Made by a program: the position numbers and the translations under genes. Source: Escherichia phage AV125. Taken from it: a DNA stretch of 64,000 nt. Positions within the stretch are counted from its first letter, which is position 1. Each line of letters starts with the position of its first letter. The DNA lies in sequence record OR352955.1; one strand, given 5' to 3'. The notes below the pieces were generated by a model that had not been told where the DNA came from, ran no database searches, and saw nothing but the letters and a program-made list of their open reading frames with translations. Positions 35,951-51,128 of the stretch are shown here, in pieces.

Positions 35951-36748
35951 CTAAAGAAATCCACCCTTTTTGAAAGCAATTTCTTCCAGGCACGCAATCT
36001 TCAATCCTTGACAGTTCTCAATAGTCTGCACGAATTGACCAGCTTCCATCAGACTGGCGTGTGTTCCTGTGTCAAGCCAAGTAAATCCTCGTCCGAGAAC
36101 TTCTACTTGTAACTTCCTGTCTTCGAGGTAGCTGCGATTGATATCGGTGATCTCCAGTTCTCCACGCGCGGAAGGGGTTACTTCTAATGCACGTTGAATA
36201 ACAGAGTTATCATAGAAATATAAACCTGTGACAGCATAATCTGATTTAGGATTTTCAGGTTTCTCTTCAATAGAAATAACTTGACGATTACTCCCAAATT
36301 CAACCACACCGAATCGTTCAGGATCTTTCACCAAACACCCGAAGATACAAGCTCCGCCCCAAACATCTACCATCTCACTAGCGTTAATCAGTAGTTTACC
36401 AAAGCTTTGTCCGAAGAATAGGTTGTCACCTAAAATAAGAGCAACAGAGTCTTCTCCGATAAAATCTTTACCGATGATGAAAGCGTCCGCAAGACCTCGT
36501 GGCTCGGATTGGATTGCGTAAGTGAGTTTTATCCCAAACATAGACCCATCTCCAAGAAGATGCTCAAAGTCTTCCTGATCGCCTGGTGTGGTGATGATTA
36601 AGATATCCTTAATGTCAGCCAACATCAATACCGATAAGGGGTAGTAGATCATGGGTTTGTCATACACAGGGAGCAATTGCTTGCTCACACTGCGTGTTAC
36701 CGGATGAAGGCGGGTTCCACTTCCTCCCGCCAAAATAATACCTTTCAT
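35951..36748 (-). CDS. rmlA: glucose-1-phosphate thymidylyltransferase
   Basis: [18 protein letters not shown]...[18 protein letters not shown] signature. Confidence 0.9.
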
Positions 36749-36756
36749 AACCCTCC

Positions 36757-37749
36757 TTAAATCTTCTTACTCCACCATTGAGGGTTGTTTAAGTACCATT
36801 CAATCGTTGAGTAGAGATCTTGTTCAAATGTAGAGTTTGCACTCCAACCCAGTTCAGACTCTATTTTAGAAGGATTGATTTCATAACGCAAGTCATGTCC
36901 TTTACGATCTTCAACAAAAGTTATCAAGTTGGAAGAAGGGTAGGTTCCTGCTTCTGGATGTACAGCATCCATGTAGTCACAAACCATATAGATGATCTCC
37001 ATATTGGTTTTGGGATTACGTGTTCCAACATTATACGTTTGACCTGGTTCTCCACCTGTTGCCACTTGAAGAATAGCTCGCGCATGATCCTCAACAAAAA
37101 GCCAGTCTCGCACCTGATCGCCTTTACCATACACCGGAATCTCTTTATTCGTCAAGATACTTGTGATGATTTTTGGGATCAGCTTTTCTGGATGTTGATA
37201 AGGTCCAAAGTTATTGGAGCAGTTGGTTATCACAACAGGTAAACCGTAGGTACGGTACCAAGCTTTCACAAGATGGTCAGATGCTGCCTTAGACGCACTG
37301 TACGGGCTTGAAGGGGCATAAGCTGTCTCTTCGGTAAAGGGAACGCCAGAGTCTGCCATATCGCCGTACACTTCGTCTGTGGAGACATGTACGAACATCT
37401 TAAGTTTATTTTTTGGGAGGAGCCTTGCAGCTTCCAATAAATTGTATGTACCAATAATATTGGAGTCGATGAAAACTCGTGGATTCTTGATAGAATTATC
37501 CACATGACTCTCTGCCGCTAAGTGAATGATGAAATCGGGATTGCACTCTACTACTAAACTTTTGACCTGGGTTTCGTTTGCCAAATCTGTTATGCTTAGT
37601 TTAACGTGAGTGATATCGCCTACATTCTCAATATCTGCTGCATAGCCCATCTTATCAACGACAAAAACTTCGTTATTGGGATCTTGACAAAGAGAGCGCA
37701 CCACGGCACTCCCAATAAAACCAAGACCACCTGTTACCAGATAGCGCAT
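36757..37749 (-). CDS. rmlB: dTDP-glucose 4,6-dehydratase
   Basis: [17 protein letters not shown] Rossmann, SDR catalytic YxxxK region, 330 aa. Confidence 0.9.
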
Positions 37750-38381: not shown

Positions 38382-38590
38382 TATTCCTCCTTAATTATTT
38401 CAAATTTGGCAACACCATTTACAATAATATGACCACAAGACATAACTCCTAGCCAAGGATCGCCGTTTTTCTTCAGGCGTTTACCGAATACATCACAAAA
38501 ACCATTCTTCATTTCAGAGGCTTCATAAGAAACCCCTTTATCAAAAACGTCTTTGAATGTGTCGATTATACCAACACATTTCAAAATCAT
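38381..38590 (-). CDS. hypothetical protein
   Basis: 69-aa ORF. Confidence 0.45.
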   Translation of the reverse strand: MILKCVGIIDTFKDVFDKGVSYEASEMKNGFCDVFGKRLKKNGDPWLGVMSCGHIIVNGVAKFEIIKEE

Positions 38591-39675
38591 TCGAAGTCAA
38601 GCTCCTCATCATCAGAGAGATCTTTGTTAGCTGAATTCAATTTGTAGTTAGTTAACTGAATCTCTTGGGCTGCTGACTGAATCAAATCAGGATTCAACCA
38701 TTTTTCCATCCAAGCTAAAGGGCTATGTTTAGGTGCTTTAAACTTGGCTTTCATTTTCAATCGACGATAAATAGGAGCAGCATTGAAATAAACCCACTGT
38801 TTAGACAATTCGGCGTTAAGACCTACAATAAAACGACCTTCACTAAACAGGTAGTCACACCACTGTTCCTCTTGTTCAACAACAGTGTCAAGAATCAAAG
38901 TCAACTCTTCAATGTTGTCTTCGTAAATTTTACGCCAAATTGGGTCATGCATCAATGCATCAATTACAGCATAATCCATCTTAACATGCAAGATTTCATC
39001 TAGCATAATTTTCTGGATCAGTTTACAAGCTCCAACAAACAGTTGTTGTTCTGCCATAGCAAAAGTAGCAGAGAAGGAGGATATAAACTGAATACCTTCT
39101 AACCCAATCAGGGCTACCATCCCTTTAAGAATCAGCAGTCGAAGTTCATCGTTAGCTTCAATCAATCCTAGAGCATACTTATGACCAGCTTCTTCCAACT
39201 GACCCATGATATCAGCAATGATACCCATACGATTGAAAATTTTATCATTAATCATAATCTGATTGATGACTTCGATGGGATCTGGAGTACATTGACGGAT
39301 TATTTCAGAATACGTTAACGCATGGAGAACTTCCATTTCACTCTGCTTCATCATCATAGCACAGGCTTCATTGTTACTCAAGAATGGAGAGAACAAAGTG
39401 ATGATTGATTTTGCAAGAGAATCATTTTCCCATTGGAACGATAAGTTTTTAATCATAACATCATAGTTGTTTTTAGAACAAGCTACGAAATCTTTACGTG
39501 TCTGATCCAAGTTAACTTCGTTTTCATCCCAATCTTGTGCTTTTTGAAGTTTGTAGAGTTTGTGCATTTCTGGATAAGTCACGTTAACAGAATCAAAGAT
39601 CCCTAATTGCTCCCCCAAAAATACTGGATATTTCCCTGTCTTGTAAACTTCGTTGTGTAAATTAATTGCTGCCAT
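38587..39675 (-). CDS. nrdB: ribonucleotide reductase class Ia small subunit
   Basis: 362 aa, ferritin-like helices with conserved Glu/His iron ligands, adjacent to nrdA. Confidence 0.85.
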   Translation of the reverse strand: MAAINLHNEVYKTGKYPVFLGEQLGIFDSVNVTYPEMHKLYKLQKAQDWDENEVNLDQTRKDFVACSKNNYDVMIKNLSFQWENDSLAKSIITLFSPFLSNNEACAMMMKQSEMEVLHALTYSEIIRQCTPDPIEVINQIMINDKIFNRMGIIADIMGQLEEAGHKYALGLIEANDELRLLILKGMVALIGLEGIQFISSFSATFAMAEQQLFVGACKLIQKIMLDEILHVKMDYAVIDALMHDPIWRKIYEDNIEELTLILDTVVEQEEQWCDYLFSEGRFIVGLNAELSKQWVYFNAAPIYRRLKMKAKFKAPKHSPLAWMEKWLNPDLIQSAAQEIQLTNYKLNSANKDLSDDEELDFE

Positions 39676-39697
39676 TTAAAATTCTCCTCAATAAAAG

Positions 39698-39711
39698 GGG
39701 GCCGAAGCCCC
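39698..39711 (-). repeat. intergenic UUCG-tetraloop hairpin
   Basis: GGGGCCGAAGCCCC upstream of nrdB start. Confidence 0.6.
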
Positions 39712-39718
39712 TTTATAT

Positions 39719-40375
39719 TTAGCCTCGAAATACTGTTTTTGTTTCCGCCAGGTGCCAATAGAAATCCGCCTTGTTTACAAGAGTGTTGTACACCTCTGGA
39801 TAAAAATGTTCTTCCTCTTTGTAACGATCCGCTGTTTCCCTGATTGACTTAGCTTTATCCTTTAGCCAAGCGAAGTGTGCCTCTTCCTCTGTAGCGAAGT
39901 AGCCTAAATGTTTACCTTTACTCCCAGAAGCTTTGGCATAAATCTTACCATCTTTCCTAACATGTGCTCCTAGTAAGTATTTTCTTTCATACCTCTTAGC
40001 ATAACTTAAGAGTGTATTTATGTAAGGAGGAACAAACCTACAATATTCAGGACAATAAACAGTATTTCCTTCAAGAACAAGATCTTTATCTAAAACAAAG
40101 CCTTCAACATTGTGTTCTTGATACCAGTTATCAAAGTTTGAAAAGGTGAACCAAGCATCACACACAGTAACATCTTTATAACCTGGTCTAATGTTTTCCA
40201 TACGATATGCACGATTAAACATGCCTTTCCAAGCTGCATAGGAAGGGTCTATGAATGTATTAACCCTTTTCCCATTGATAACACCACCTTCCCACAATCT
40301 ACGTTCAACATCCACAATCAAGGGGATTTCTCCCCTCTCTGTGAGAACGGTAACTTTACGTTTACCCTTCTTCAT
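39719..40375 (-). CDS. free-standing homing endonuclease-like protein with AP2 domain, inserted between nrdA and nrdB
   Basis: KGKHLGYFATEEEAHFAWL is an AP2-type DNA-binding signature typical of phage homing endonucleases; placement mirrors T4 mobE. Confidence 0.6.
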   Translation of the reverse strand: MKKGKRKVTVLTERGEIPLIVDVERRLWEGGVINGKRVNTFIDPSYAAWKGMFNRAYRMENIRPGYKDVTVCDAWFTFSNFDNWYQEHNVEGFVLDKDLVLEGNTVYCPEYCRFVPPYINTLLSYAKRYERKYLLGAHVRKDGKIYAKASGSKGKHLGYFATEEEAHFAWLKDKAKSIRETADRYKEEEHFYPEVYNTLVNKADFYWHLAETKTVFRG

Positions 40376-40386
40376 CTGTTCTCCTA

Positions 40387-42630
40387 CTACATTTTACAGG
40401 CACTACACCCTTCGTCTTCAGAATCTTCTTGTGCTAAAGAATCTGCTGATTTTGTTCTACTATTAAGGTAATACAATGATTTGCCACCCAGTCTAGCAAA
40501 ATTCAGAATAAACTGCATCTCAGCTTTCACGGATAAACGTCCACCTACCAATTTAGAATAATCTAGCCAAGAATCACAAGAAATTCCTTGGTCAGTAAAC
40601 TTGGTAAAGATACCATACATTTCTGCAAGGTCTTTAGCCGGAGTATCCCAGGCAGATTGGTAGAACATTTTCAGTTTTTCGTAGTCTGGAACAATAAATA
40701 ATACACTACCTTTCTGACTTTGTTTATACATAATGGTATCACGAACAGGATACAGAGAGTTAGTAGTATTGCTTACCAAACTGCTGGACTCATTAGGTGC
40801 AATAGCAGCCAATACACTGTTACGGATACCACCTTGTTCAATGATTTCAGCACGTAAGCCTTCCCAGTCCATTTTAAGATCAAAATTACCGATACTATCT
40901 ACTGTTTTAGCATAGGTGTCAATTGGTAGCCAACCTTGAGGCCATTTGGTCTTATCGATCCATTCTGCATTACCTTTTTCCTTAGCCAGACGCAGAGAGG
41001 CTTTTGCCAACCAAAAGTAATGACGTTCTGCAAGTTCATGCATTAATTTTTTAGCATAAGCATCTGAATAATTTACAAAATTACTTGCCAAATAATGCGC
41101 TAAGTTTGTAATACCTACACCAATAGATCTACGTGCTTTAGCAGTTATTTCGTTATGTTTAAATGGATAATCCATTGTTTCAATAACGTTGTCAATTGTC
41201 AATACAGTGTAGTATGCAACATCCTCATATTCTTCAGGTAAGACACGACCAGCGACAATAGAAGATAAGAAGCATAAAGCCAATTCTTGATCTTCTGTAT
41301 TCTCACCAGTAAAGAGATCCGGCATATTGTGGAAAGCTTTAGTTGGTAAGAAGATCTCTTGACACAGGTTTGATTGATACACCGTATCCAGGAAAGGTGT
41401 ATGGTTGTTAACGTTGTCAGCAAAGAACATGTAAATACGTCCTGTTTCTGCACGTTGAACAATAATCTCTGTCAGAAGATCACGAGCCTTAACAAATTTT
41501 TTCTTAATGCGACGACGACTTACTTTGTCATAAACTGCATCAAACTCTTCTTCACTTTTATATAAAGCTTCATAAAGTTCAGGAGCATCATCACAACTAA
41601 CTAACATCCAGTCTTCGTTTTTTGCTGCTCGACGCAAGAACGAACGGTTAACAACAATAGAATAATCTAGTTTATCCACTCGTTTATCTATAGGTGTTGT
41701 TGGATTCTTCAGTCGAATCAGATCGTCGAAGTCTGGTTCAAGTATGGTAAAGGTAACTGTAGCACTACCTCCACGGCTTGCTTGCTTTGAAGCTCCAACA
41801 CTATCTTCCATCCATTTCAGATACGGAAGAAGACCACCGTGAATAATACGATTATTCTTAACACCTTGACCTGTGGCACGAGTTTGAAGATTAACACCAA
41901 TACCTGCGTTATTCAACGTATACTCATGAGCTAAGTAATTAGCAATGGCTAAAGACTCTGCCGTATCGTCTGCACGGAATAAACAACAAGACGCACTTCC
42001 TTTGATTGGAGTTCGTAGAGTTGTCAGATACGGCGATGGCAGATTAATCTTAAGATCGCTAACATAAGTATAAAGTTTTTTAATATCTTCTATACGGCGT
42101 TCTTTTGGTTGGATCTCCATAACCTTCATTGCGATACCAATGAAAAGAAACTGTGGAGACTCATGCACCACATCGTTTACTGCATCTCGAATAAGATATT
42201 TATCTACCATCTGACGTAAAACAGAATAACCATAAGTTAGATTTTTATTATGCTTTACAATCTTACCGATTTCTTTGATCTCTTCATCGGTATAATCCAT
42301 TTTAGCCCAATGTCCACGTTCTACCATATCATGATAAAAGGTATTCAGTGAAGGGATACTGTGGTATCCCCCATGAGCCTGTTTGTAAATCATACCCAGA
42401 AGAAGTCTTCCTGCCATATCACTGTAAGCTTGTGTTTTCTTGTCAATACACGCTGCAATCATTGCTTTATGCAGATCACGTGTAGACACACCGTCATAAC
42501 ACCGCTTCACAGCTTCTAATTCAATTTCAGACCAGTTTAGTTTACCTGCTGCAAATTCAGACCACTTACGAAGTTTTTCTGGATTAAACTCCTCTGTCTT
42601 ACCATTAGATTTAGTTACAAAACGAATCAA
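40387..42630 (-). CDS. nrdA: ribonucleotide reductase class Ia large subunit
   Basis: 747 aa, N-terminal ATP-cone (VTKSNGKTEEFNPEKL), conserved catalytic Cys-containing core. Confidence 0.9.
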   Translation of the reverse strand: MIRFVTKSNGKTEEFNPEKLRKWSEFAAGKLNWSEIELEAVKRCYDGVSTRDLHKAMIAACIDKKTQAYSDMAGRLLLGMIYKQAHGGYHSIPSLNTFYHDMVERGHWAKMDYTDEEIKEIGKIVKHNKNLTYGYSVLRQMVDKYLIRDAVNDVVHESPQFLFIGIAMKVMEIQPKERRIEDIKKLYTYVSDLKINLPSPYLTTLRTPIKGSASCCLFRADDTAESLAIANYLAHEYTLNNAGIGVNLQTRATGQGVKNNRIIHGGLLPYLKWMEDSVGASKQASRGGSATVTFTILEPDFDDLIRLKNPTTPIDKRVDKLDYSIVVNRSFLRRAAKNEDWMLVSCDDAPELYEALYKSEEEFDAVYDKVSRRRIKKKFVKARDLLTEIIVQRAETGRIYMFFADNVNNHTPFLDTVYQSNLCQEIFLPTKAFHNMPDLFTGENTEDQELALCFLSSIVAGRVLPEEYEDVAYYTVLTIDNVIETMDYPFKHNEITAKARRSIGVGITNLAHYLASNFVNYSDAYAKKLMHELAERHYFWLAKASLRLAKEKGNAEWIDKTKWPQGWLPIDTYAKTVDSIGNFDLKMDWEGLRAEIIEQGGIRNSVLAAIAPNESSSLVSNTTNSLYPVRDTIMYKQSQKGSVLFIVPDYEKLKMFYQSAWDTPAKDLAEMYGIFTKFTDQGISCDSWLDYSKLVGGRLSVKAEMQFILNFARLGGKSLYYLNSRTKSADSLAQEDSEDEGCSACKM

Positions 42631-42646
42631 CTTCTCCTCCCTATTA

Positions 42647-42901
42647 TTAATGCATATTCAAAACATCTACATCATAACCGAACTTCATTTCATTAAAAAG
42701 TCCATTAGCATATAGAAAACCTTCAAAATGAGTTATGTCATCAAACCCTTTTGCTTTTGCTCGACGGTCTGCTTCTTGTCTTTTAGGAGATAAACGTTTT
42801 GAAGTGTCTAGAATTACAGTTACATTACAACCAACAGTTTCATCAAAATAGACTTCGATTTCACAGCCTTCATATTTATTATCAGTCATTGTCCCTCTCA
42901 T
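42647..42901 (-). CDS. hypothetical protein
   Basis: 84-aa ORF. Confidence 0.45.
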   Translation of the reverse strand: MRGTMTDNKYEGCEIEVYFDETVGCNVTVILDTSKRLSPKRQEADRRAKAKGFDDITHFEGFLYANGLFNEMKFGYDVDVLNMH

Positions 42902-43341
42902 TGATTAGTATCATCTGCTTTCGCAGGATCATAAGAGTTACCGAAATCATCCATCTTAATATGTGACGCACCCCAACCTGTAAATTCTTCATCACCAAAA
43001 TGAAAAATATCATTTTCTTGATAGATTCGTTTAAAACCACAATTAGGTGAAACAGGGAAAGTGAAAAGCGTTGTATTTGCAAACACTACTCGCTTATCGT
43101 TATTGCTTCGGATATTCACATTACGCTCAACAGAATAGTGTGAATCTTCAGCCATACCCAGCATTACAAGCGACGCTCTAATAACAGCATTTTGTTTCTC
43201 GTGTGGGATATTGCCATTGTGTTTATTTGATTCTAGTTTCCAGATAGGGGTAGACATTACAGTAGACATGCTTACGGTAGCCCAAGTTGTAGTATTTACT
43301 AATGACATATTTTCTCCTTCATTTTGAATGGGAGGACTCAC
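42898..43341 (-). CDS. hypothetical protein
   Basis: 147-aa ORF. Confidence 0.5.
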   Translation of the reverse strand: MSPPIQNEGENMSLVNTTTWATVSMSTVMSTPIWKLESNKHNGNIPHEKQNAVIRASLVMLGMAEDSHYSVERNVNIRSNNDKRVVFANTTLFTFPVSPNCGFKRIYQENDIFHFGDEEFTGWGASHIKMDDFGNSYDPAKADDTNQ

Positions 43342-43406
43342 CTCCTCCCAGTATTGTGCTATATTATACTAAAACTAATACTAAAGTCAATAACTATTTA
43401 AACAGA

Positions 43407-44405
43407 TCACCATTTAGTATGATTTGTTAAAAGTTGACGATGTTGAATCCAGCCTTTGAAATTGCCAGACCAAAACTTACCATTACGATCTACATGGGTA
43501 ATACCTGGTTCCCAAGAGTTAAAATCCCAAGGAGCATTGATAAACAAATCTTCAAAACAGTTCTCTCCATATTGTTCGCATGTTTCTTGCATTGGAGTGG
43601 CTTGATGTTCAAACGGAGAAGCATGAACCTTGCGCCCAGTCAGCAAACGACCATAGATATCTAAAGCTTTATCTTTAGTTGCATTCAAACGACGATAGCT
43701 AACCTGTGCACAACACGAAGCTGAAATAGCTTTGGCTTCTTCCAAAGTAAGCACAACAACTTCTCCAGATTCATCTTGAACATAGTATCCACCAAAAACA
43801 AAATGATCGTCACCTTCTGTGCCAATATTATCATAGAAATGGTCTACATAAGGTGTGTGCCATTGCCCTGATTTCAGCACTTCTGGTGTAGATTCTTCAT
43901 ACTCTTTGTGCATCTCTTTAGCCAAAGCTTCGATAGTAGGATCGGCTTCTTTGTCATCACGTAGCCACCAGAAATTTTCATATTCTGTTGCTGTCAGAAC
44001 TGTTTTAATTCGTTGGAAAGGTTCCAGAAGACGGTTTGCAACTTGTTTGTGGTACCCTGCCAAAGAGAATTCTTCTGCAAAACGTGCTGCACTAAGCGCG
44101 GCAAGATCCCACCACTCTTGAGCAGTATAACCTGCATCAATAAGAGCGTCATGATCAACACCTTTATCCTGCATACCAGGTTGGTTAGCCCCAAAACGAT
44201 AAGGACGAGCAGGTTGATTTCGCACCATTTCAATCAGTGTTTTAACAGGTATAGCACGGCTAGAAGCAGCATTACGACTGAACAGGCGGTGAGTCATCAA
44301 TTCTGAATGAATAATACGTGGATATTCTAGTTCAAAAGTTACAATCTCTTTTCCGTCTTCAGTGATGGAATGCGCAATAATACTAGCCGAAATCTGTTTT
44401 GTCAT
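43407..44405 (-). CDS. ThyX-like flavin-dependent thymidylate synthase
   Basis: ELMTHRLFSRNAASSRA resembles ThyX RHR-x7-S signature (first Arg replaced by Thr); 332 aa. Confidence 0.55.
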   Translation of the reverse strand: MTKQISASIIAHSITEDGKEIVTFELEYPRIIHSELMTHRLFSRNAASSRAIPVKTLIEMVRNQPARPYRFGANQPGMQDKGVDHDALIDAGYTAQEWWDLAALSAARFAEEFSLAGYHKQVANRLLEPFQRIKTVLTATEYENFWWLRDDKEADPTIEALAKEMHKEYEESTPEVLKSGQWHTPYVDHFYDNIGTEGDDHFVFGGYYVQDESGEVVVLTLEEAKAISASCCAQVSYRRLNATKDKALDIYGRLLTGRKVHASPFEHQATPMQETCEQYGENCFEDLFINAPWDFNSWEPGITHVDRNGKFWSGNFKGWIQHRQLLTNHTKW

Positions 44406-44414
44406 TTTTTCTCC

Positions 44415-45023
44415 TTAGTTTTTAAAATTGTTCAAAGTGTTAAAAACATCCAAACATGTTAGCCACTGATCTTCTAAACCTGTGATCACAACATTTGGTT
44501 TTTTCTTTAGTTCTTCTAGATGGTTATCTTTATAAGGCGTATTAAAATATATTTTAACCACTTCATCTGGAAAATATAGTAGGTTATCAGCCCTGTCATC
44601 TATTGCTATATCACAAGGCAATAAGTATTTTTCTTTCGTAGCAAAAAAGCCGTTACCAGATCCTTTGCTAAAATCAATCGTATCTAACGTTCTTAAAACA
44701 TGCTTATGTTTAGAACTTAAGTGACCACCTTTTGTCACACTTGCGATCAAAAGATTGCTACCTTTCCTTGAAACATACTTTAAGAAATCTGGCATACCTG
44801 GAACAAAACCCATTGTATCATAGAGATGAGGATTATCCAGAAATCCGTAAGGATCTATATTGAACTCCTCCCTGAAACCAGGAAAGTAGTTGGTAAGATC
44901 ATAGTCTGCATTTTTTGTGAATGTGTCTATCTTAACACCAAGTCCACTAATCTTATTCAACCATTCTAACCAAGCAACATCTAATGGAGCCACAACTAAA
45001 TCCCAATCACATACTATCTGCAT
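44415..45023 (-). CDS. HAD-superfamily 5'(3')-deoxyribonucleotidase-like phosphatase
   Basis: IVCDWDLVV (DxDxV motif I), SKHK, IAIDDRADN (DD motif IV). Confidence 0.55.
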   Translation of the reverse strand: MQIVCDWDLVVAPLDVAWLEWLNKISGLGVKIDTFTKNADYDLTNYFPGFREEFNIDPYGFLDNPHLYDTMGFVPGMPDFLKYVSRKGSNLLIASVTKGGHLSSKHKHVLRTLDTIDFSKGSGNGFFATKEKYLLPCDIAIDDRADNLLYFPDEVVKIYFNTPYKDNHLEELKKKPNVVITGLEDQWLTCLDVFNTLNNFKN

Positions 45024-45059
45024 AAAACCTCCTCTCTCTTTTAGTATAGTTATCTTATA

Positions 45060-45635
45060 CTAACTTTCAATTTCCTGCAATAGGATTTTGACTATTTGTT
45101 TGCGGCGTTTCGCTACTGTGCTTTCAGGTTCTATTTTACGCTTCTTCAACCAAGCTTTATCTTTCTTAGCTCTACACAAAGCTATTGCTTCTTTTTCAGC
45201 TTTCGCTTCTTCAAAAGATATGCCTTGCTTGTCTGCATAAGCAAGAATAGAGTTGCACAATTTACAAACCATTCGCAAATCTTCTTCTTTCACATAGATT
45301 AAACGGAAAACAAAAAGAGGAATATCATCAAAACATTGAAGTTGTTTTGCTGCGTGAATATGATCCACTTGGAAGTCTTTCATTCCTCCTCTATGTCCAC
45401 ATATTTCGCACTCACAATTCCAAACTTGTTTTGGTTTTCCAGTTTTCTTGTCTATCATCACATTGCCGTCTTTATCTACGCGATCAACTTTAAAACGCCT
45501 TGCATTGATAACCTTAATTTTATTAGGGTGTCTCATCCATGCTTTTCTAAAACATCCTCTAAGATAAGTATAAAATTCCGCTTGTGTTTTCCAGGGTGTT
45601 CCTTCACCCCACATTATTTTTGGTTCACCTGCCAA
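45060..45635 (-). CDS. HNH endonuclease
   Basis: CECEICGH...DHIHAAK...CKLCN, HNH with zinc-binding Cys pairs. Confidence 0.65.
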   Translation of the reverse strand: MAGEPKIMWGEGTPWKTQAEFYTYLRGCFRKAWMRHPNKIKVINARRFKVDRVDKDGNVMIDKKTGKPKQVWNCECEICGHRGGMKDFQVDHIHAAKQLQCFDDIPLFVFRLIYVKEEDLRMVCKLCNSILAYADKQGISFEEAKAEKEAIALCRAKKDKAWLKKRKIEPESTVAKRRKQIVKILLQEIES

Positions 45636-45802
45636 TATTGCTCACCTTTTTAGCTGTATATTCCCCTGGTGGGATATTGTGTTTAAAAAACAAAAGGCGG
45701 TCTAACCCCGCCTTGCACATTGTTTCTGGAATAGTCAAAGTTAGTAAAAGTTTATCACCTTTTCGGTTGAATATTTTATAAACTTCTCCTGCTCCATATT
45801 GT

Positions 45803-46204
45803 TTAGTATTGCTCGCCACTAATACGTTCCTTAAGTTGTTTAATAGCTTCAACTGCATCTACATAAGAAGAGTTATACATGTGTTTCAGTGCCACTCGGA
45901 TTAAAGGATCTTTTGTGAAGAAATCAATAAGAAGCATAGCTTGATCATGTTTAGCTGCATTTGTCATAGATGGATAATTTTCACGAACCATATACGTGTT
46001 ATTTTGCATAAGGGTTCTTTCTAGTTCGATACAATGAATAGCTTTATCTAGGTTAATCTGACGTTCACCTTTAATACGTGTTGCGTATTTTGCCAATTTG
46101 CAAAAACAAGGTGTGCCACCAACCAAATAAGTTAGTTCGATAGGTTGCATTGCCATTTTTGTGTAGTGATCACCGTCAACCTGATTATCAAAAGCATTAG
46201 ACAT
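45803..46204 (-). CDS. conserved phage protein, DUF3310-like
   Basis: VDGDHYTKMAMQPIELTY resembles the HY...QPIE hallmark I recall for that family. Confidence 0.5.
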   Translation of the reverse strand: MSNAFDNQVDGDHYTKMAMQPIELTYLVGGTPCFCKLAKYATRIKGERQINLDKAIHCIELERTLMQNNTYMVRENYPSMTNAAKHDQAMLLIDFFTKDPLIRVALKHMYNSSYVDAVEAIKQLKERISGEQY

Positions 46205-46466
46205 AATTTTCCTCCTGAATTCCTACTGCGCCTTCTTCTGGGTAATCTGTATAATAAGCTACCCTACCTTGATAGATAACATCACCATCATTGTAGATTG
46301 CTGTATCTTCTTGAATTGTTATTTTAACGTCAAGTAAATCTGGGTCTTTCTCGATGGTGTAGTTTAAACCTAACATTTCAAACAGTTCGAAAATTTCATT
46401 ACCTGTTAATGTAATGCTCATATTTCCTCCTTTTATTGTGGTTAGCAGAGTATACACTAATATCAA
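46197..46466 (-). CDS. hypothetical protein
   Basis: 89-aa ORF. Confidence 0.5.
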   Translation of the reverse strand: MILVYTLLTTIKGGNMSITLTGNEIFELFEMLGLNYTIEKDPDLLDVKITIQEDTAIYNDGDVIYQGRVAYYTDYPEEGAVGIQEENYV

Positions 46467-46507
46467 ATTTTTGTCAATAAAAAAGGGAGCAATAAGCTCC
46501 CTGATTA

Positions 46508-47467
46508 TTAGATTCCAATAATAGTTGCTGCTCGTTTATCTTTGGATCTGGTGTTTGCTCTACTACGTGACAAACCTCCACAAGATTCACAACGAATGAT
46601 ATCGAAAGAACTTACCGCAGTGTGGTATTGTTTACCAGTAACAACGTGAACGTGATCACTGCCACAACGAGAACAACGGACCTTCTCATCTGGGTAATAA
46701 GCGGATAAGTTAGGATGCTGTGGAATCCACGGAAGGATTTTCATATACAAATCACGGAGCGAAACAACATCACCATCATTGTAAATCTGCATACGTTCAA
46801 AAGCATCACGATCACCTTCACAACATGCTTTCCATAAAGGGAACCCCTCGTTATCCAGTTTTTCACTTTCTGTTTCGAAATATGCTCCCATTTCTTTAAG
46901 GGAGTTGGAAGGAAGTGCAAATTGTTTCTTAGCTGCCTTCAATGTATCAACAACTACATAATTAGAAGGAGGAGCCATATCGTGATATGCAAATCGTTGG
47001 TTAATGTATGCACGGTCAAACTTATATCCGTTGTGTGCCACAACTACATCTGCCTCATTCAGAAGGTTCCAAAGATCTTGGCAAAGCTCCCAATCATCTG
47101 TATGATCAATATCAAAAAGAGGATAAGAAGACAAGTTCTTACCTTCCACTTCACCAGTATACAGGTCGGCAGAAGAGTAAGATAACAAATAACCCCTACG
47201 AATTACTTGATCTGGAGAAATGAAGGCTTTGAATCGACGGAAAGTATATGCAATCTCTGGTGCAGTTTCAACATCAATAATTTTAATAACTGGTTGTTTC
47301 TTTTTAACGGGTTCTTGTTTACTTCCACTGAAACGTGCAAGGAAATCATTTACTGTGCTTTTTCTTGTTGGGCTACCTAAAACAATTGCTGCAATATTTC
47401 GAGAAGACATACCCTCTGCACTCATACTAAGGATATCTGCTTTCTGCTCTTCTGTTAATCTGCTCAC
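46508..47467 (-). CDS. DnaQ-like 3'-5' exonuclease (DexA-like) with N-terminal HTH and C-terminal zinc ribbon
   Basis: Exo I IIDVETAPE, Exo II VVVAHNGYKFDRAYI, Exo III YNDGDV; CSRCGS...CESCGG. Confidence 0.7.
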   Translation of the reverse strand: MSRLTEEQKADILSMSAEGMSSRNIAAIVLGSPTRKSTVNDFLARFSGSKQEPVKKKQPVIKIIDVETAPEIAYTFRRFKAFISPDQVIRRGYLLSYSSADLYTGEVEGKNLSSYPLFDIDHTDDWELCQDLWNLLNEADVVVAHNGYKFDRAYINQRFAYHDMAPPSNYVVVDTLKAAKKQFALPSNSLKEMGAYFETESEKLDNEGFPLWKACCEGDRDAFERMQIYNDGDVVSLRDLYMKILPWIPQHPNLSAYYPDEKVRCSRCGSDHVHVVTGKQYHTAVSSFDIIRCESCGGLSRSRANTRSKDKRAATIIGI

Positions 47468-48153
47468 TCTGCCTCCTGTTGCGAGATGTATGACTGAAGC
47501 ATACTCTCAAATGTTGTATCGTCATTATCCCAGCGTTTCATGTATACCAACTGGAAAATTGTTTCTATCCATTCATCTGTTGTCATATGGACTTCTTCTC
47601 CATCCCAAGAAGTAAAATTAACACCATCTGGGAACCATGAGTAGTAAGTATCTTTAACTGTTTGGAAAAGTTCTGCTTGAGTTTTACAAGCTGAAAGAAG
47701 ATTAAAACAAGTAATATCTCCGAACTTAATATCAAAATCTTGATAAGGTCGGATACTATCTGTTTTATCTCCCATTAGCATCTGATATGCTAACCAGTAA
47801 CTGCCCCAACCTTTAACTTCTTTCTTTTTACCTTTATCTACGATCCATATATCGCCAATAGACTCGTCAATAAGAATTATATCTGGATTTTTAAATACTC
47901 CATCCTCTTTGTAGAAATTAAAAAGGATACTAGGAGTATGTAAACTATCTTTATCTATAGACACTACGATATAAGAAAATTTACCCGTCCTTTTATAATC
48001 TTTATAACCTTGGAAACCATACTTCTCTAACTCATCATCAGCCTCTATTACAGTAACAACATCACCATTGTGGAACTCCACAAGATAATCTTTGGTTTCT
48101 GAAAGCTGAAGTGGTTTGATATCTAATCGTTCAGACTTATATTCTACAGGCAT
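47464..48153 (-). CDS. FEN/RNase H-like 5'-3' exonuclease (ATG-initiated portion; frame is open a further 441 nt upstream)
   Basis: WLAYQMLMGDKTDSIRP resembles the FEN/T4 RNase H helix-3-turn-helix GDKxDN motif; acidic clusters ILIDESIGDIWIVD. Confidence 0.6.
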   Translation of the reverse strand: MPVEYKSERLDIKPLQLSETKDYLVEFHNGDVVTVIEADDELEKYGFQGYKDYKRTGKFSYIVVSIDKDSLHTPSILFNFYKEDGVFKNPDIILIDESIGDIWIVDKGKKKEVKGWGSYWLAYQMLMGDKTDSIRPYQDFDIKFGDITCFNLLSACKTQAELFQTVKDTYYSWFPDGVNFTSWDGEEVHMTTDEWIETIFQLVYMKRWDNDDTTFESMLQSYISQQEAE

Positions 48154-48594
48154 TTTGAAGGCGTGTCTGAAAGTTTTTCCTACGCCAATAACTCCGCAAT
48201 ATTTTTCTAAACGTAGATGTTTTAGAATACCTAAGACTTTTGTTTTAGCTGCTTGGAAGGTGTGTCCGATATCTTCTGGCGGGTATTGCTTATCAATGAT
48301 TTCGAACTCTTCCTTTGTGAAGGGACGTTTGTTTTTGGAGGCTCTTTCTGCATTTGTATCTCCTAGCCAACCTCCAATTTTAGTCTTGCTTTTACCCCAA
48401 AACTCTGTCTTATTTTTAAATTCCTTTTGAGCACCTGAAGGGATGTGCTTCGCAATGATTGTTCTTTTCTCTAATGCAGACGCTGCTTGGAAAGCGATCT
48501 GATCATAATCAATTGCAGCTATTGTTTCTTCGTTGACATATAAATGAAGATCTTCAGGTTTAATTAAAATATAACCGCTAATATTTCCCCCTAA

Positions 48595-48804
48595 TTATTC
48601 ATCGTCATCCTCTGTTGAGAATGTTTTAGTATACGGACATTGACGACTTTTCGGGATTGCTATAACTTCATCTTGGTTAGCGTTAGAATAGTAGCAATAT
48701 TTTGTATTGCCATTAACTTCAGAATCAGACAAGATTAAAGTAATTTGACCTGCTGCTACTGTGAAACTAAAAGCTAAAAGAACGACTGTCAGAATCTTTT
48801 TCAT
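48595..48804 (-). CDS. small secreted protein
   Basis: MKKILTVVLLAFSFTVAAGQ signal-like N-terminus, acidic C-terminus; RBS AGGAGG. Confidence 0.55.
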   Translation of the reverse strand: MKKILTVVLLAFSFTVAAGQITLILSDSEVNGNTKYCYYSNANQDEVIAIPKSRQCPYTKTFSTEDDDE

Positions 48805-48813
48805 AACGCCTCC

Positions 48814-48843
48814 TAAAAAGCCTACCTCATTAAGTAGGTAGGC
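48814..48843 (-). terminator. rho-independent terminator (minus strand)
   Basis: GCCTACCT-loop-AGGTAGGC then U-run on the minus-strand transcript, immediately before RBS of 48804 gene. Confidence 0.55.
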
Positions 48844-48876
48844 ATAATATCATAACTAATCCCGCAAGTCAAGAAC

Positions 48877-49755
48877 TTATTTAAGGATTGTTGCTTTGGT
48901 TAAATCTTCCATCAGACCTCGAATCTCATTGAAGCACAGAAGGACTGAAGCTTCAATACTGCCTTCTTCGTCTGCAAAATATTTCGGAAAACGTAGTTTA
49001 GAAAGTTTAAACTCTTTATCCACTACAAAATCTACAACACCATCATATTCAAGACCGATTGCAACCACATCTTTACCATCTTCTTTTAGTTCGACAGCTT
49101 TAGACTCGTATAGAGATTCTTTACTCCAAACAACAACACCCTCGCTATCCTCCATTTTGATATAATTTCCGAGAGTAATACGATCTGCTTCGTGATTCTC
49201 CAGCAATTCACCAAAACCTTTTACAATAGCTTCTTCGTGCACACTAAAACCTACCGAAGGGAAAGTCCCCAGAACGGAACGGAGGAAAGAAGTAATCTCT
49301 TCTGCAACCTTTTTACTTCCATTAAGAACATAAAGAAGATTCGTAGTTTTATCCAAGACAACATAATTAAAGAAATCTTCAGGTTCTGTTTCAGGCAATA
49401 GTGCAAATTCAATATCTTCCTTCATTGCTTTGACTACTTCTTTATCGACATAAAACTCTTTACCTTCGCTCTCCATGTCCTGACGCATTTCTTCTAGACG
49501 TTCATTCAAAATACGTTTAACTTTCTTTTTATCTACCTTTTTCACAGATTGACCTACATTAAGCAGTTCAAGATCTGAAAACTCTTTTACAAATTTAGAG
49601 TCATCTTCGAAACGAACAAGACCGATAGTGTGTGACTGGGAGCCTTCTGCTGTTACAAATTCCAGAGGAATATCTGTAATGCTGTTAATGGATGCTACAG
49701 AAGCATTGTCACCAACAACCATAGGCAGAGCGGATTTAAAAGATTTTACAAACAT
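48877..49755 (-). CDS. hypothetical protein
   Basis: 292-aa acidic ORF. Confidence 0.55.
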   Translation of the reverse strand: MFVKSFKSALPMVVGDNASVASINSITDIPLEFVTAEGSQSHTIGLVRFEDDSKFVKEFSDLELLNVGQSVKKVDKKKVKRILNERLEEMRQDMESEGKEFYVDKEVVKAMKEDIEFALLPETEPEDFFNYVVLDKTTNLLYVLNGSKKVAEEITSFLRSVLGTFPSVGFSVHEEAIVKGFGELLENHEADRITLGNYIKMEDSEGVVVWSKESLYESKAVELKEDGKDVVAIGLEYDGVVDFVVDKEFKLSKLRFPKYFADEEGSIEASVLLCFNEIRGLMEDLTKATILK

Positions 49756-49767
49756 GTTTCCTCCTAT

Positions 49768-50406
49768 TTAAAAACGGGTATTTAAAAAATAGTTAGACAT
49801 ACCTAACTCTAATGCTTCGAGATTGTAAGCTTCAGCCGCTTCCAACTCTGTAGTATATCTTCCTAAATATTTTGTTTTCTTATCGAAACAAATAAAAGCC
49901 AGCCATTTATTTTTAGCTTTGTCATAGGAGACTCCCCTAAAATTTGAATACTTGCTTTTTGTTTTACCTCTGTTTCGAATCTGTTCACTTTGTGTTGTCC
50001 ATCTGCAATTCTCTTTACTGTAACCAAGATCAACATTTACACGATCTAAACTATGGTTTTTAGGTCGCTTACCCATGTCTTTCAAGAAAGTGTTAAATGA
50101 TTTCTTCCAATCATCACAAACAGTAATTCCTCGTCCACCGTATCTATCATAGTGCTCACAATTTTCATTATAACACCTTTGTAGCATATTACGATAACTT
50201 TCGTAAGTATATCGTTCCTTATTAGATAGGCCATCGCCCTTACTACAATACATGCATTTCGGACTCTTTGATCTTTTCAGACTGGACAATGTTCTTAAAC
50301 TTTCTTTTTGGCATACCAAGCATAAACATACAAAAGTAGTTTGATTGTCAATCTTGGTTTCAGAAAGACGGGAGATTCTAAAATCTCCCTTTGTTGAACC
50401 TATCAT
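49768..50406 (-). CDS. HNH homing endonuclease with AP2 domain
   Basis: SLDRVNVDLGYSKENCRWTTQSEQIRNR (HNH), FRGVSYDKAKNKWLAFI...KYLGRYTTELEAAEAYN (AP2). Confidence 0.75.
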   Translation of the reverse strand: MIGSTKGDFRISRLSETKIDNQTTFVCLCLVCQKESLRTLSSLKRSKSPKCMYCSKGDGLSNKERYTYESYRNMLQRCYNENCEHYDRYGGRGITVCDDWKKSFNTFLKDMGKRPKNHSLDRVNVDLGYSKENCRWTTQSEQIRNRGKTKSKYSNFRGVSYDKAKNKWLAFICFDKKTKYLGRYTTELEAAEAYNLEALELGMSNYFLNTRF

Positions 50407-51128
50407 TTTTTGATAATAGCTGCAATGTTGGGTTTAATGAAACCTGACCACTTCATGATCTTGCCTTTATCATCAAAGAACACATACACTTTCTGTTTTT
50501 CATTATAAACAGCATGAACACCAGTGTATGCTCCTTCTGGACGATTGGCATTTCGTTCTTCAATTGCAGTGCATTCTTGTGCAATGGCTGAATCGATATC
50601 TGAAGTTTTCCAAGTTTTCAGCAACTGTTGTTTAGTTGGATACTTGGAATCATTACTTTTCAATACCTCTTTAATAACTTTCTTTTCTGGATATTTTGAA
50701 CGGATTAGAGTGTCACGAGACATACGCATAATACCAGCAGCCATTAGTGCCATTTGAACTGGCTCTGTAAATGTTTGTTCCAAAGCATCAAAATCAGTAT
50801 ACACAGTTGGAGTAAAAACATCGCCTACAGCATAGTCCAAGAAATTCATCGTATGTTCTTCACCAAAGAACATGTAGGTCAGATAACTGGATACTACAAA
50901 AATATCCGCTGCTGCATCCAAGAGTTCTACATGATCGTTTACTTTCGCGGCTGTTTCATACTCTTTAAGCTCTTCACGAACGAATCCGATTTGGGACATA
51001 AATAGCTCTTGAGTGAATTCAGGTTGTTCACCACCTCGTGCTTTAGCATTCCAATCAATCACGTGCTTCGCTGCATTTTTGAAAAATTCAGTATCGAACT
51101 TAATATCTTTAAAAAAATTCTCGATCAT
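50403..51128 (-). CDS. MazG-like all-alpha nucleoside triphosphate pyrophosphohydrolase (dCTPase/dUTPase-like)
   Basis: REELKEYETAAKVNDHVELLDAAADIFVV acidic EExxE...D helix pair. Confidence 0.5.
   Translation of the reverse strand: MIENFFKDIKFDTEFFKNAAKHVIDWNAKARGGEQPEFTQELFMSQIGFVREELKEYETAAKVNDHVELLDAAADIFVVSSYLTYMFFGEEHTMNFLDYAVGDVFTPTVYTDFDALEQTFTEPVQMALMAAGIMRMSRDTLIRSKYPEKKVIKEVLKSNDSKYPTKQQLLKTWKTSDIDSAIAQECTAIEERNANRPEGAYTGVHAVYNEKQKVYVFFDDKGKIMKWSGFIKPNIAAIIKK

Follow-up and report, generated by a model that had tools for sequence, protein, structure and literature searches.

The 64,000-nucleotide stretch of Escherichia phage AV125 analysed here (sequence record OR352955.1; hereafter the window) carries three open reading frames (ORFs), ORF-A, ORF-B and ORF-C, that an initial annotation made from the sequence described as homing-endonuclease-type genes. 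We consider it probable that two of these ORFs are free-standing homing endonuclease genes of the IPA-HNH type, namely ORF-A between the ribonucleotide reductase genes nrdA and nrdB and ORF-C between a MazG-like gene and rdgC, and that ORF-B is a vertically inherited HNH-fold nuclease. All three ORFs were found on the minus strand at exactly the positions given in the initial annotation (Table 1), which overall was partly supported: its interpretation holds for ORF-A and ORF-C and fails for ORF-B.

ORF-A, ORF-B and ORF-C are real genes and not chance ORFs, because they have strong PHROG matches (ORF-A, 953 at 1e-56 and 374 at 1e-40; ORF-B, 1985 at 8.5e-66; ORF-C, best match at 9e-52) and ratios of nonsynonymous to synonymous substitution rates (dN/dS) of 0.05-0.11 (ORF-A, 0.06-0.09; ORF-C, 0.11; ORF-B, 0.05). 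The values of ORF-A and ORF-C are near those of nrdA and nrdB (0.05-0.06), and therefore both encode constrained, working proteins.

Presence, absence and flanking alleles at two intergenic sites

The window region shares 98-99% identity with E. coli myoviruses of the phAPEC8-like kind (genus Phapecoctavirus, subfamily Stephanstirmvirinae), and the nearest records are AV126, nieznany and Schickermooser. Comparison of the interval from 36 to 53 kb with Schickermooser revealed just two large insertions or deletions, which are exactly ORF-A and ORF-C. The initial annotation had taken all three ORFs for free-standing mobile genes marking likely recombination hotspots at which this genome differs from relatives. 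This held for ORF-A and ORF-C, which are missing from some relatives at the exact sites and are accompanied by altered flank tracts, but not for ORF-B, which is present in all close relatives, is syntenic and diverges like its neighbours.

Schickermooser lacks ORF-A, and there the terminator comes directly after nrdA, ahead of nrdB; at this site, 705 bp of the window compare with 35 bp in Schickermooser. The phage collection contains 52 records with an empty nrd junction. A query representing the occupied junction was covered at 80% or more in 19 records, in 18 of them over the whole junction; the exception is DE16, in which 18 bases towards ORF-A are missing. Among the matches listed, element-free records align with this query only from position 40418 onward.

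The end of nrdA next to ORF-A differs from that of Schickermooser at 20 or more positions in 31 bp (40387-40417), and beyond this tract at about 1 position per 130 bp. The element-linked nrdA allele is identical in nieznany, ESCO5 and ZCKP1 and near-identical in VEcB and phi92, whereas the element-less Schickermooser and alia have a different nrdA 3′ allele in common. In the element- or remnant-bearing genomes inspected, from both genera, the nrdA 3′ end reads ...GAAGACGA(A/G)GGGTGTAG(T/C)GCCTGTAAAATGTAG and encodes ...EDEGCSACKM. In element-free genomes of both genera it reads GGTTGTGA(A/G)GCTTG(C/T)AAGATGT(G/A)ATGAA(A/G)CTAGGGG, a sequence that codes for ...GCEACKM and continues into the terminator stem; the nrdA 3′ end and terminator of Schickermooser contain GGTTGTGAAGCTTGCAAGATGTGATGAAACTAGGGGC. 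Among the genomes inspected, the GCSACKM allele was found only with the element or a remnant of it, and the conserved element-free sequence is the obvious candidate target of ORF-A. Exact-pattern scans of IMG/VR with the element-linked and element-free nrdA alleles gave 0 matches each, with patterns that were valid on fetched loci.

The strongest result for the mobility of ORF-A, as judged from sequence comparison, is an island of similarity between the window and VEcB, a phage of the sister genus Justusliebigvirus in which an ORF-A counterpart occupies the same nrd site. Nucleotide identity is 97.1% in ORF-A and 96.7% in the last 60 bp of nrdA, compared to 77% in nrdB, 74-80% in the rest of nrdA and 72% in upstream DNA. 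Relative to phi92, synonymous divergence (dS) is 0.43 for ORF-A, 1.5 for nrdA and 2.5 for nrdB. Conversely, ESCO5 has flanks that are 99-100% identical and yet an ORF-A allele of 82%. A remnant of about 155 bp is what is left of the ORF-A gene in ZCKP1, and a distant metagenomic relative has a 64% ORF-A allele at the same nrd site.

ORF-C was found in five phage records, always at the site between the MazG-like gene and rdgC, and it is missing from about 58 of 63 well-covered records; Schickermooser and nieznany are without it. The empty site is a 56-bp spacer with a terminator. None of the five ORF-C records also carries ORF-A, and the combination of both in the window is absent from the phage collection, which agrees with independent assortment of the two genes. 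Relative to Schickermooser, the 3′ end of the MazG-like gene has 20 differences in 60 bp, several of which change amino acids (MKWSGFIKPNIAA vs MKPSTFVKPNIAG), and sparse differences beyond; the element-free 3′ end of Schickermooser contains ATGAAACCATCGACCTTTGTCAAACCTAATATTGCAGG. A WSGF variant of this end occurs with ORF-C, and a PSTF variant in element-free genomes of both genera. A divergent metagenomic relative combines the WSGF variant with an ORF-C allele of 77%; its amino acid identity to the window is 76.9% for ORF-C, 64.7% for MazG and 64.3% for RdgC.

Homing was evaluated on three points. First, ORF-A and ORF-C are each present or absent at one exact site among relatives that are 98-99% identical. 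Second, the element is more similar between lineages than its flanks are, for ORF-A in VEcB and phi92 and for ORF-C in the metagenomic relative. Third, an altered, apparently co-converted flank is linked to the element at the 3′ ends of nrdA and MazG: in all element- or remnant-bearing genomes inspected, the upstream gene carries a distinct 3′ end. On these alignments, ORF-A and ORF-C are each flanked by a local tract of different ancestry.

Each of the two follows closely on the stop codon of a conserved gene, from the transcript of which it would be translated. The AGGAG ribosome-binding site of ORF-A lies between the nrdA stop codon and the terminator, and ORF-A should therefore be read from the nrdA transcript; a counterpart of this terminator is annotated in Schickermooser. 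In ORF-C, the ATG and the stop codon of the preceding MazG-like gene overlap as ATGA. Hairpins limit the translation of some T4 endonuclease genes, and we speculate that the hairpin GGGAGATTTTAGAATCTCCC near the start of ORF-C may modulate or limit its translation.

It is very improbable that ORF-A and ORF-C are passive "morons", brought in by illegitimate recombination at terminator-containing spacers and devoid of a mobility mechanism of their own. Unrelated small ORFs do occur in the same spacers of relatives (phrog_17458 between nrdA and nrdB; phrog_22194 between MazG and RdgC), and the spacers therefore tolerate insertions. Passive insertion does not account well for a gene family that holds to one position in different genera and in a metagenomic relative, with alleles down to 64-77% amino acid identity, nor for an element that travels with a flank tract, nor for the enrichment of the family beside ribonucleotide reductase and polymerase genes (PMC10448857).

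Apart from the two elements, both spacers vary within the subfamily. At least five states of the nrdA-nrdB spacer (equivalent to window 39676-40386) were seen, including the empty site; the endonuclease gene only; the 82% allele with a 112-amino-acid (aa) ORF; the 112-aa ORF alone; and the remnant with the 112-aa ORF. This ORF (phrog_17458; loci L005 3121-3459, L006 3122-3460, L010 2422-2757 and L014 4696-5025) overlaps the nrdB start and is absent from the window. The MazG-RdgC spacer (equivalent to window 49756-50402) of phi92, alia and the metagenomic relative holds an ORF of 92-94 aa (phrog_22194; loci L009 7303-7581, L010 12457-12735 and L011 4651-4935), either alone or beside an ORF-C allele, and this spacer is therefore a multi-occupancy hotspot. 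The 5′ 170 bp of nrdB differ from Schickermooser at a raised density, with 13 differences over about 140 bp (window 39510-39652) compared to roughly 1 per 100 bp elsewhere; downstream of ORF-A, too, there may thus be a tract of foreign ancestry.

A model for the spread of ORF-A and ORF-C is as follows. When a carrier and an element-free relative infect the same cell, the encoded protein would bind the element-free allele through its AP2 domain and N-terminal module, the bound target being the nrdA 3′ end and terminator for ORF-A or the 3′ end of the MazG-like gene for ORF-C. The protein is predicted to nick or cut this allele at the target, after which recombinational repair would copy the element and about 30-60 bp of donor flank into the recipient. 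The carrier genome would be immune, its own site being split by the insertion and altered by many substitutions.

Domain architecture and family membership

Pairwise comparison of ORF-A and ORF-C gave no useful similarity, whereas the alignment of their family profiles gave an hhalign probability of 99.7% (E 4e-25) over 129 columns that span two domains and extend through the AP2 region. The two proteins are distant paralogs, each with a divergent HNH-like domain and a C-terminal AP2 domain. ORF-A consists of an N-terminal beta module of four strands, free of cysteine (residues 1-41), an HNH-like domain (about 44-123; key residues L95-D96-K97-D98, Y107, C112 and N120) and an AP2-like domain (about 136-185). 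In ORF-C, the HNH-like domain (63-146; L120-D121-R122, Y129, N133-C134-R135-W136, Q142 and N145) is preceded by a Cys-rich finger (27-54; C27xC29xxC32...C51xxC54) and followed by the AP2 domain (155-205). ORF-C is thus of an "LDR" sub-type with a Cys-rich N-terminal finger, where ORF-A has the beta module instead. In the shared domain, the signature W..M..R.Y...C..W..F..F is followed by L-D-K-D in proteins of the ORF-A type and by L-D-R in those of the ORF-C type, after which come Y..E.C-R/x-F/W and an Asn or Gln. A GIY-YIG-like reading of the N-domain was ruled out on the AlphaFold2 (AF2) model of ORF-A, in which residues 44-57 are helical and do not form a beta-hairpin.

The initial annotation had assigned AP2 motifs to ORF-A and ORF-C and an HNH motif to ORF-C, and had let the AP2 assignment depend on profile searches. 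For ORF-C, AP2 was borne out: it matched Pfam AP2 at E 5e-7 (30.3 bits, slightly below the gathering score of 33.3 bits) and the solved AP2 domain of WRI1 at 6e-7, its family profile matched WRI1 at 1e-11, and 23 of 36 relatives matched Pfam AP2. The HNH part did not stand in its canonical form, the domain being of a divergent form without the catalytic His. For ORF-A, the position between nrdB and nrdA was as described, and the AP2 domain failed in the direct Pfam search and passed at the family level: direct searches of Pfam and NCBIfam gave neither an AP2 nor an HNH match, and phmmer against the PDB gave noise only. Pfam AP2 was matched by 2 of 15 homologues (best E 7e-5), AP2/ERF domains were five of the six top PDB matches of the ORF-A family profile (weak, E 0.06-0.2), and residues 137-185 of the AF2 model (predicted local distance difference test (pLDDT) score 90.7) form three strands and then a helix, as in the AP2 layout. 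The AP2 domain of ORF-A is supported, then, by family and profile comparisons and not by direct Pfam search.

The IPA-HNH homing endonuclease genes were defined from Vibrio phage ICP1 by Barth et al. 2023 (NAR Genom Bioinform, PMC10448857) as having an HNH-like domain too divergent for Pfam HNH_3 and a C-terminal AP2 domain. They are often near polymerase and ribonucleotide reductase genes, with 18% of the family near the latter (PMC10448857). The founders are ICP1 gp59, gp115/116 and gp209, and our homology comparison was made with gp59. The joint profile of ORF-A and ORF-C matched gp59 by hhalign at 99.5% (E 1.7e-22, 134 columns). The joint profile also matched gp39 of Sodalis phage SO-1 (99.4%), whose annotation is that of an endonuclease from a group I intron within the DNA polymerase gene, and gp59 shares with ORF-A the motif LDKD...GNKVYCPEYCR...IN (GNxVYCPEYCR). 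Because of these matches and the shared motif, ORF-A and ORF-C are placed, on sequence grounds, in the already described IPA-HNH family. Both have homology to gp59, a C-terminal AP2 domain and no Pfam HNH_3 match, and their placement also agrees, with ORF-A between nrdA and nrdB, and ORF-C between the MazG-like gene and rdgC and near a ligase gene. The HNH-like family is large: an exhaustive search gave 38,088 representative clusters at E <= 0.001, and tblastn gave 1,082 phage records.

Like ORF-A and ORF-C, the ICP1 genes encode a divergent HNH-like domain that Pfam HNH_3 does not detect, with an AP2 domain C-terminal to it, and they are free-standing beside essential replication or nucleotide-metabolism genes. 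The hosts differ, the founders being in Vibrio phage ICP1 and ORF-A and ORF-C in E. coli phages of the Stephanstirmvirinae. The insertion sites, flank alleles and cross-genus transfer found here are specific to this phage group, and nothing specific was found in the literature on homing endonucleases of Phapecoctavirus.

As the initial annotation pointed out, T4 carries mobE between nrdA and nrdB. Like ORF-A, mobE is free-standing, in the same orientation, immediately downstream of nrdA and upstream of nrdB. The T4 spacer also has the small nrdB.1 (NUMOD3 motif) before nrdB, where some relatives of the window carry the 112-aa ORF. The likeness is positional only, with no detectable homology between mobE and ORF-A (hhalign probability 0.25%). 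MobE is a 141-aa canonical HNH protein with the histidine, a Pfam HNH match (2.6e-4) and no AP2 domain, whereas ORF-A has no Pfam HNH match. This looks like convergence and not like shared ancestry, with different families of endonuclease having entered the same spacer independently.

Proteins known as HNH-AP2 endonucleases were reportedly described by Magnani, Sjolander & Hake in Plant Cell in 2004 as having a recognisable HNH motif; unlike these, ORF-A and ORF-C have Lys or Arg in place of His and no Pfam HNH match. Proteins of this kind from cyanobacteria, ciliates and the phages RB49 and Felix O1 (cited in PMC10448857) resemble ORF-A and ORF-C in having a nuclease-type domain followed by AP2, and they have been proposed to be mobile.

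Putative nuclease activity and the missing histidine

Nuclease activity and the exact target of ORF-A and ORF-C are points that we infer, because the HNH His is replaced by Lys or Arg and the link to canonical HNH proteins was not reproduced. Several results weigh against the proteins being homing nucleases. Where HNH proteins have their catalytic His, the aligned residue is Lys in 163 of 174 proteins of the ORF-A type and Arg in all 121 of the ORF-C type; the general-base His of a canonical HNH is absent from ORF-A (K97) and from ORF-C (R122). We take K97 and R122 to be the equivalents of this His from the HNH_3 consensus and from the HHsearch that Barth et al. reported, which was not reproduced. 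Neither Pfam HNH nor HNH_3 matched the whole ORF-A and ORF-C proteins (E 0.1), and Pfam searches with isolated LDR/LDK fragments and the family consensus at E 10 were also without a match. With the undivided ORF-A model, Foldseek gave no PDB match at E <= 0.001, and the 50 matches listed include neither an HNH nor an AP2 entry. An hhalign comparison of the family with a single canonical HNH_3 protein, ICP1 gp80, was negative. Our literature search turned up no published assay of DNA cleavage by an IPA-HNH protein, and AP2-containing phage proteins can be pure DNA-binding repressors (CasPR, 10.64898/2026.02.23.707548). Finally, purifying selection on ORF-A and ORF-C is stronger than expected for a purely selfish, decaying element.

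The remote HNH link that Barth et al. reported (PMC10448857) was thus not reproduced in our Pfam, Foldseek and hhalign comparisons. ICP1 gp59 likewise has no Pfam HNH or HNH_3 match, and Pfam searches with SO-1 gp39 and Staphylococcus phage K gp198 as bridges to HNH_3 gave no match. The D-R pair is also present in these last two members of the same divergent family (MDRID in gp39, locus L017 2075-2833; IDRIN in gp198, locus L016 1570-2205). Because SO-1 gp39 reads D-R, the His-less motif reaches members annotated as intron endonucleases.

The Lys/Arg, Asp and Asn/Gln positions are near-invariant in the family, as in a working active site. In the ORF-A model, strands at 94-96 and 113-115 are followed by a helix at 117-123 with the near-invariant N120, and Foldseek found no solved HNH protein. 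This predicted strand-strand-helix unit with D96, K97 and N120 is compatible with a beta-beta-alpha metal finger.

It is possible, although in our estimate unlikely, that ORF-A and ORF-C encode sequence-specific DNA binders without nuclease activity (repressors, or anti-defence or exclusion factors, of a CapR/CasPR-like kind), the patchiness of which would result from ordinary recombination and selection or from cleavage in trans by another phage nuclease. The catalytic His is missing in essentially the whole family, there is neither a sequence nor a fold match to solved HNH nucleases, and the dN/dS of 0.06-0.11, the same as for nrdA and nrdB, suggests that the phage benefits from their function; the copy in phi92 is itself annotated as a "potential transcription factor". 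CapR+AP2 phage proteins silence cas genes by binding alone, and in the CasPRs CapR and AP2 are joined by helical linkers in binding-only repressors (bioRxiv 10.64898/2026.02.23.707548). ORF-A and ORF-C resemble these proteins in the use of AP2, with a Cys-rich finger in the ORF-C type, for sequence-specific recognition within coding regions. They differ from CasPRs, which were compared by description only, in showing homing-type population genetics. Binding alone is also at odds with the precise and recurrent insertion sites right after stop codons, the sharply bounded island of 97% identity within flanks of 72-80%, the substituted flank allele that accompanies the element in every genome inspected, the decayed remnant in ZCKP1, the annotation of the family member SO-1 gp39 as intron-encoded, and the near-invariance of Lys/Arg, Asp and Asn/Gln, which is as for an active rather than a dead site. 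Therefore, on this balance, we prefer the homing endonuclease reading.

With respect to the domain itself, we tentatively put forward, with considerable doubt, that it is either a catalytic variant of the beta-beta-alpha-metal fold, in which Lys or Arg replaces His, or a non-cutting DNA-binding module. If it were a non-cutting module, very common annotations as "HNH endonuclease" would be wrong, and the genes would spread through a recruited nuclease or persist by regulating or protecting the adjacent essential gene.

ORF-B, the surrounding gene cluster and implications

The initial annotation was correct in calling ORF-B an HNH protein. Residues C76, D91 and H92 are invariant, and a second Cys pair, C124xxC-N, is mostly conserved. 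The AF2 model (pLDDT 94.4) had as its best solved Foldseek match the Gme HNH nickase 4h9d (probability 0.99; root-mean-square deviation 2.2 Å over 59 columns). Pfam HNH was sub-threshold (14.9 bits vs 21.4), as was Endonuclease_7, and the ORF-B profile gave zinc-finger noise only against PDB sequences. ORF-B has a true HNH fold (C76xxC...D91-H92...C124xxC-N), and like 4h9d and endonuclease VII-like proteins it has a beta-beta-alpha metal finger, a Cys pair and a D-H motif. Unlike 4h9d, it has long helical N- and C-terminal extensions within its 191 aa and an insert of about 30 residues between D-H and the second Cys pair. A start at an internal ATG, instead of the TTG, would yield 184 aa.

ORF-B is present in every Stephanstirmvirinae genome examined, shows no presence/absence polymorphism among about 69 close relatives, and has an identical position in Schickermooser, nieznany, phi92 and alia, which represent two genera. 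Relative to phi92 it is 75.7% identical in amino acids and 73.7% in nucleotides, within the range of its neighbours (53-87% and 66-83%); therefore neither site polymorphism nor a similarity exceeding that of the flanks was observed. A tblastn search found 551 places in 550 phage records, essentially one per genome. In the unrelated phages PAK_P3 and Mangalitsa, the homologue is beside a 5′-3′ exonuclease, ligase or ThyX gene in a replication/recombination cluster. Since ORF-B is present in single copy at a conserved position, and since its divergence across two genera matches that of its neighbours, the best reading of these comparisons is that it is a housekeeping nuclease of the replication/recombination module and not a mobile element. 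Its role is probably structure-specific or nicking, by analogy with endonuclease VII, as which some homologues are annotated.

That all three genes are free-standing homing endonuclease genes, with ORF-B fixed in the subfamily, seems to us quite improbable. ORF-B does have a genuine HNH fold, PHROG and RefSeq call it an HNH endonuclease, and other homologues are labelled "HNH homing endonuclease". These labels are outweighed by the uniform presence and position of ORF-B, its neighbour-like divergence with a dN/dS of 0.05, its single copy per genome, its location beside the same kinds of genes in unrelated phage families and its lack of a separate DNA-binding module such as AP2 or NUMOD. The lesson for annotation is that "HNH endonuclease" does not imply mobility.

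Every gene between 36 and 53 kb is on the minus strand. In the order of transcription, the ligase gene is followed by the MazG-like pyrophosphohydrolase gene (51128-50403), ORF-C, rdgC, two exonuclease-type genes and small ORFs, ORF-B, the genes for a 5′-nucleotidase and ThyX, and then nrdA, ORF-A, the terminator hairpin and nrdB. Positions are given in Table 1. An intron- or intein-borne element was ruled out, with nrdA and nrdB intact and ORF-A and ORF-C intergenic. Rfam gave no structured RNA match over 36-53 kb, and there is therefore no group I intron there.

Table 1. Positions of the genes and sequence features described in the text, in window coordinates
Feature	Position	Strand	Description
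nrdB, ribonucleotide reductase small subunit	38587..39675	-	Pfam Ribonuc_red_sm 6e-33; downstream of ORF-A
Intrinsic terminator hairpin GGGGCTTCGGCCCC and T run	39698..39711	-	After ORF-A here; directly after nrdA in element-free genomes
ORF-A, 218 aa	39719..40375	-	Probable IPA-HNH-type free-standing homing endonuclease gene
Spacer from nrdA stop to ORF-A start	40376..40386	-	TAG-TAGGAGAACAG-ATG; AGGAG ribosome-binding site 6 nt before ATG
Last 60 bp of nrdA, element-linked allele (...EDSEDEGCSACKM, stop)	40387..40446	-	Putative co-converted tract with altered putative target
nrdA, class Ia ribonucleotide reductase large subunit	40387..42630	-	Pfam Ribonuc_red_lgC 3e-97; host gene upstream of ORF-A
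ORF-B, 191 aa, TTG start	45060..45635	-	Conserved syntenic HNH-fold nuclease in DNA-metabolism cluster
ORF-C, 212 aa	49768..50406	-	Probable IPA-HNH-type free-standing homing endonuclease gene
8-bp perfect hairpin GGGAGATTTTAGAATCTCCC	50370..50389	-	Starts 14 nt downstream of ORF-C start codon
Divergent 3′ end of MazG-like gene (...MKWSGFIKPNIAAIIKK, stop)	50404..50463	-	Linked to ORF-C; ...MKPSTFVKPNIA... in element-free genomes of both genera

Two further observations concern the neighbourhood. A segment of about 440 bp (window 48154-48594) has no minus-strand ORF of at least 50 aa amid a tightly packed gene cluster; its AT skew is strongly negative, it is unannotated in Schickermooser too, and it has no Rfam match. 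Just downstream of the nrd cluster (window 35951-37749) are dTDP-sugar pathway genes, homologues of glucose-1-phosphate thymidylyltransferase and dTDP-glucose 4,6-dehydratase, which are annotated alike in relatives.

These results fix two precise points of recombination and mosaicism, the nrdA/nrdB and MazG/rdgC spacers, and explain the differences at those spacers among otherwise 98-99% identical Phapecoctavirus genomes that are therapeutic candidates. They also show genetic exchange between the genera Phapecoctavirus and Justusliebigvirus. The natural series of empty, occupied, diverged and decayed sites, together with the candidate target sequences defined here, is a ready-made system for the question of whether IPA-HNH proteins, devoid of the HNH histidine, cut DNA. 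Current understanding is not overturned, as endonuclease genes beside ribonucleotide reductase genes are a classic pattern; ORF-A and ORF-C add well-documented members to a known family, in a setting of the classic kind.

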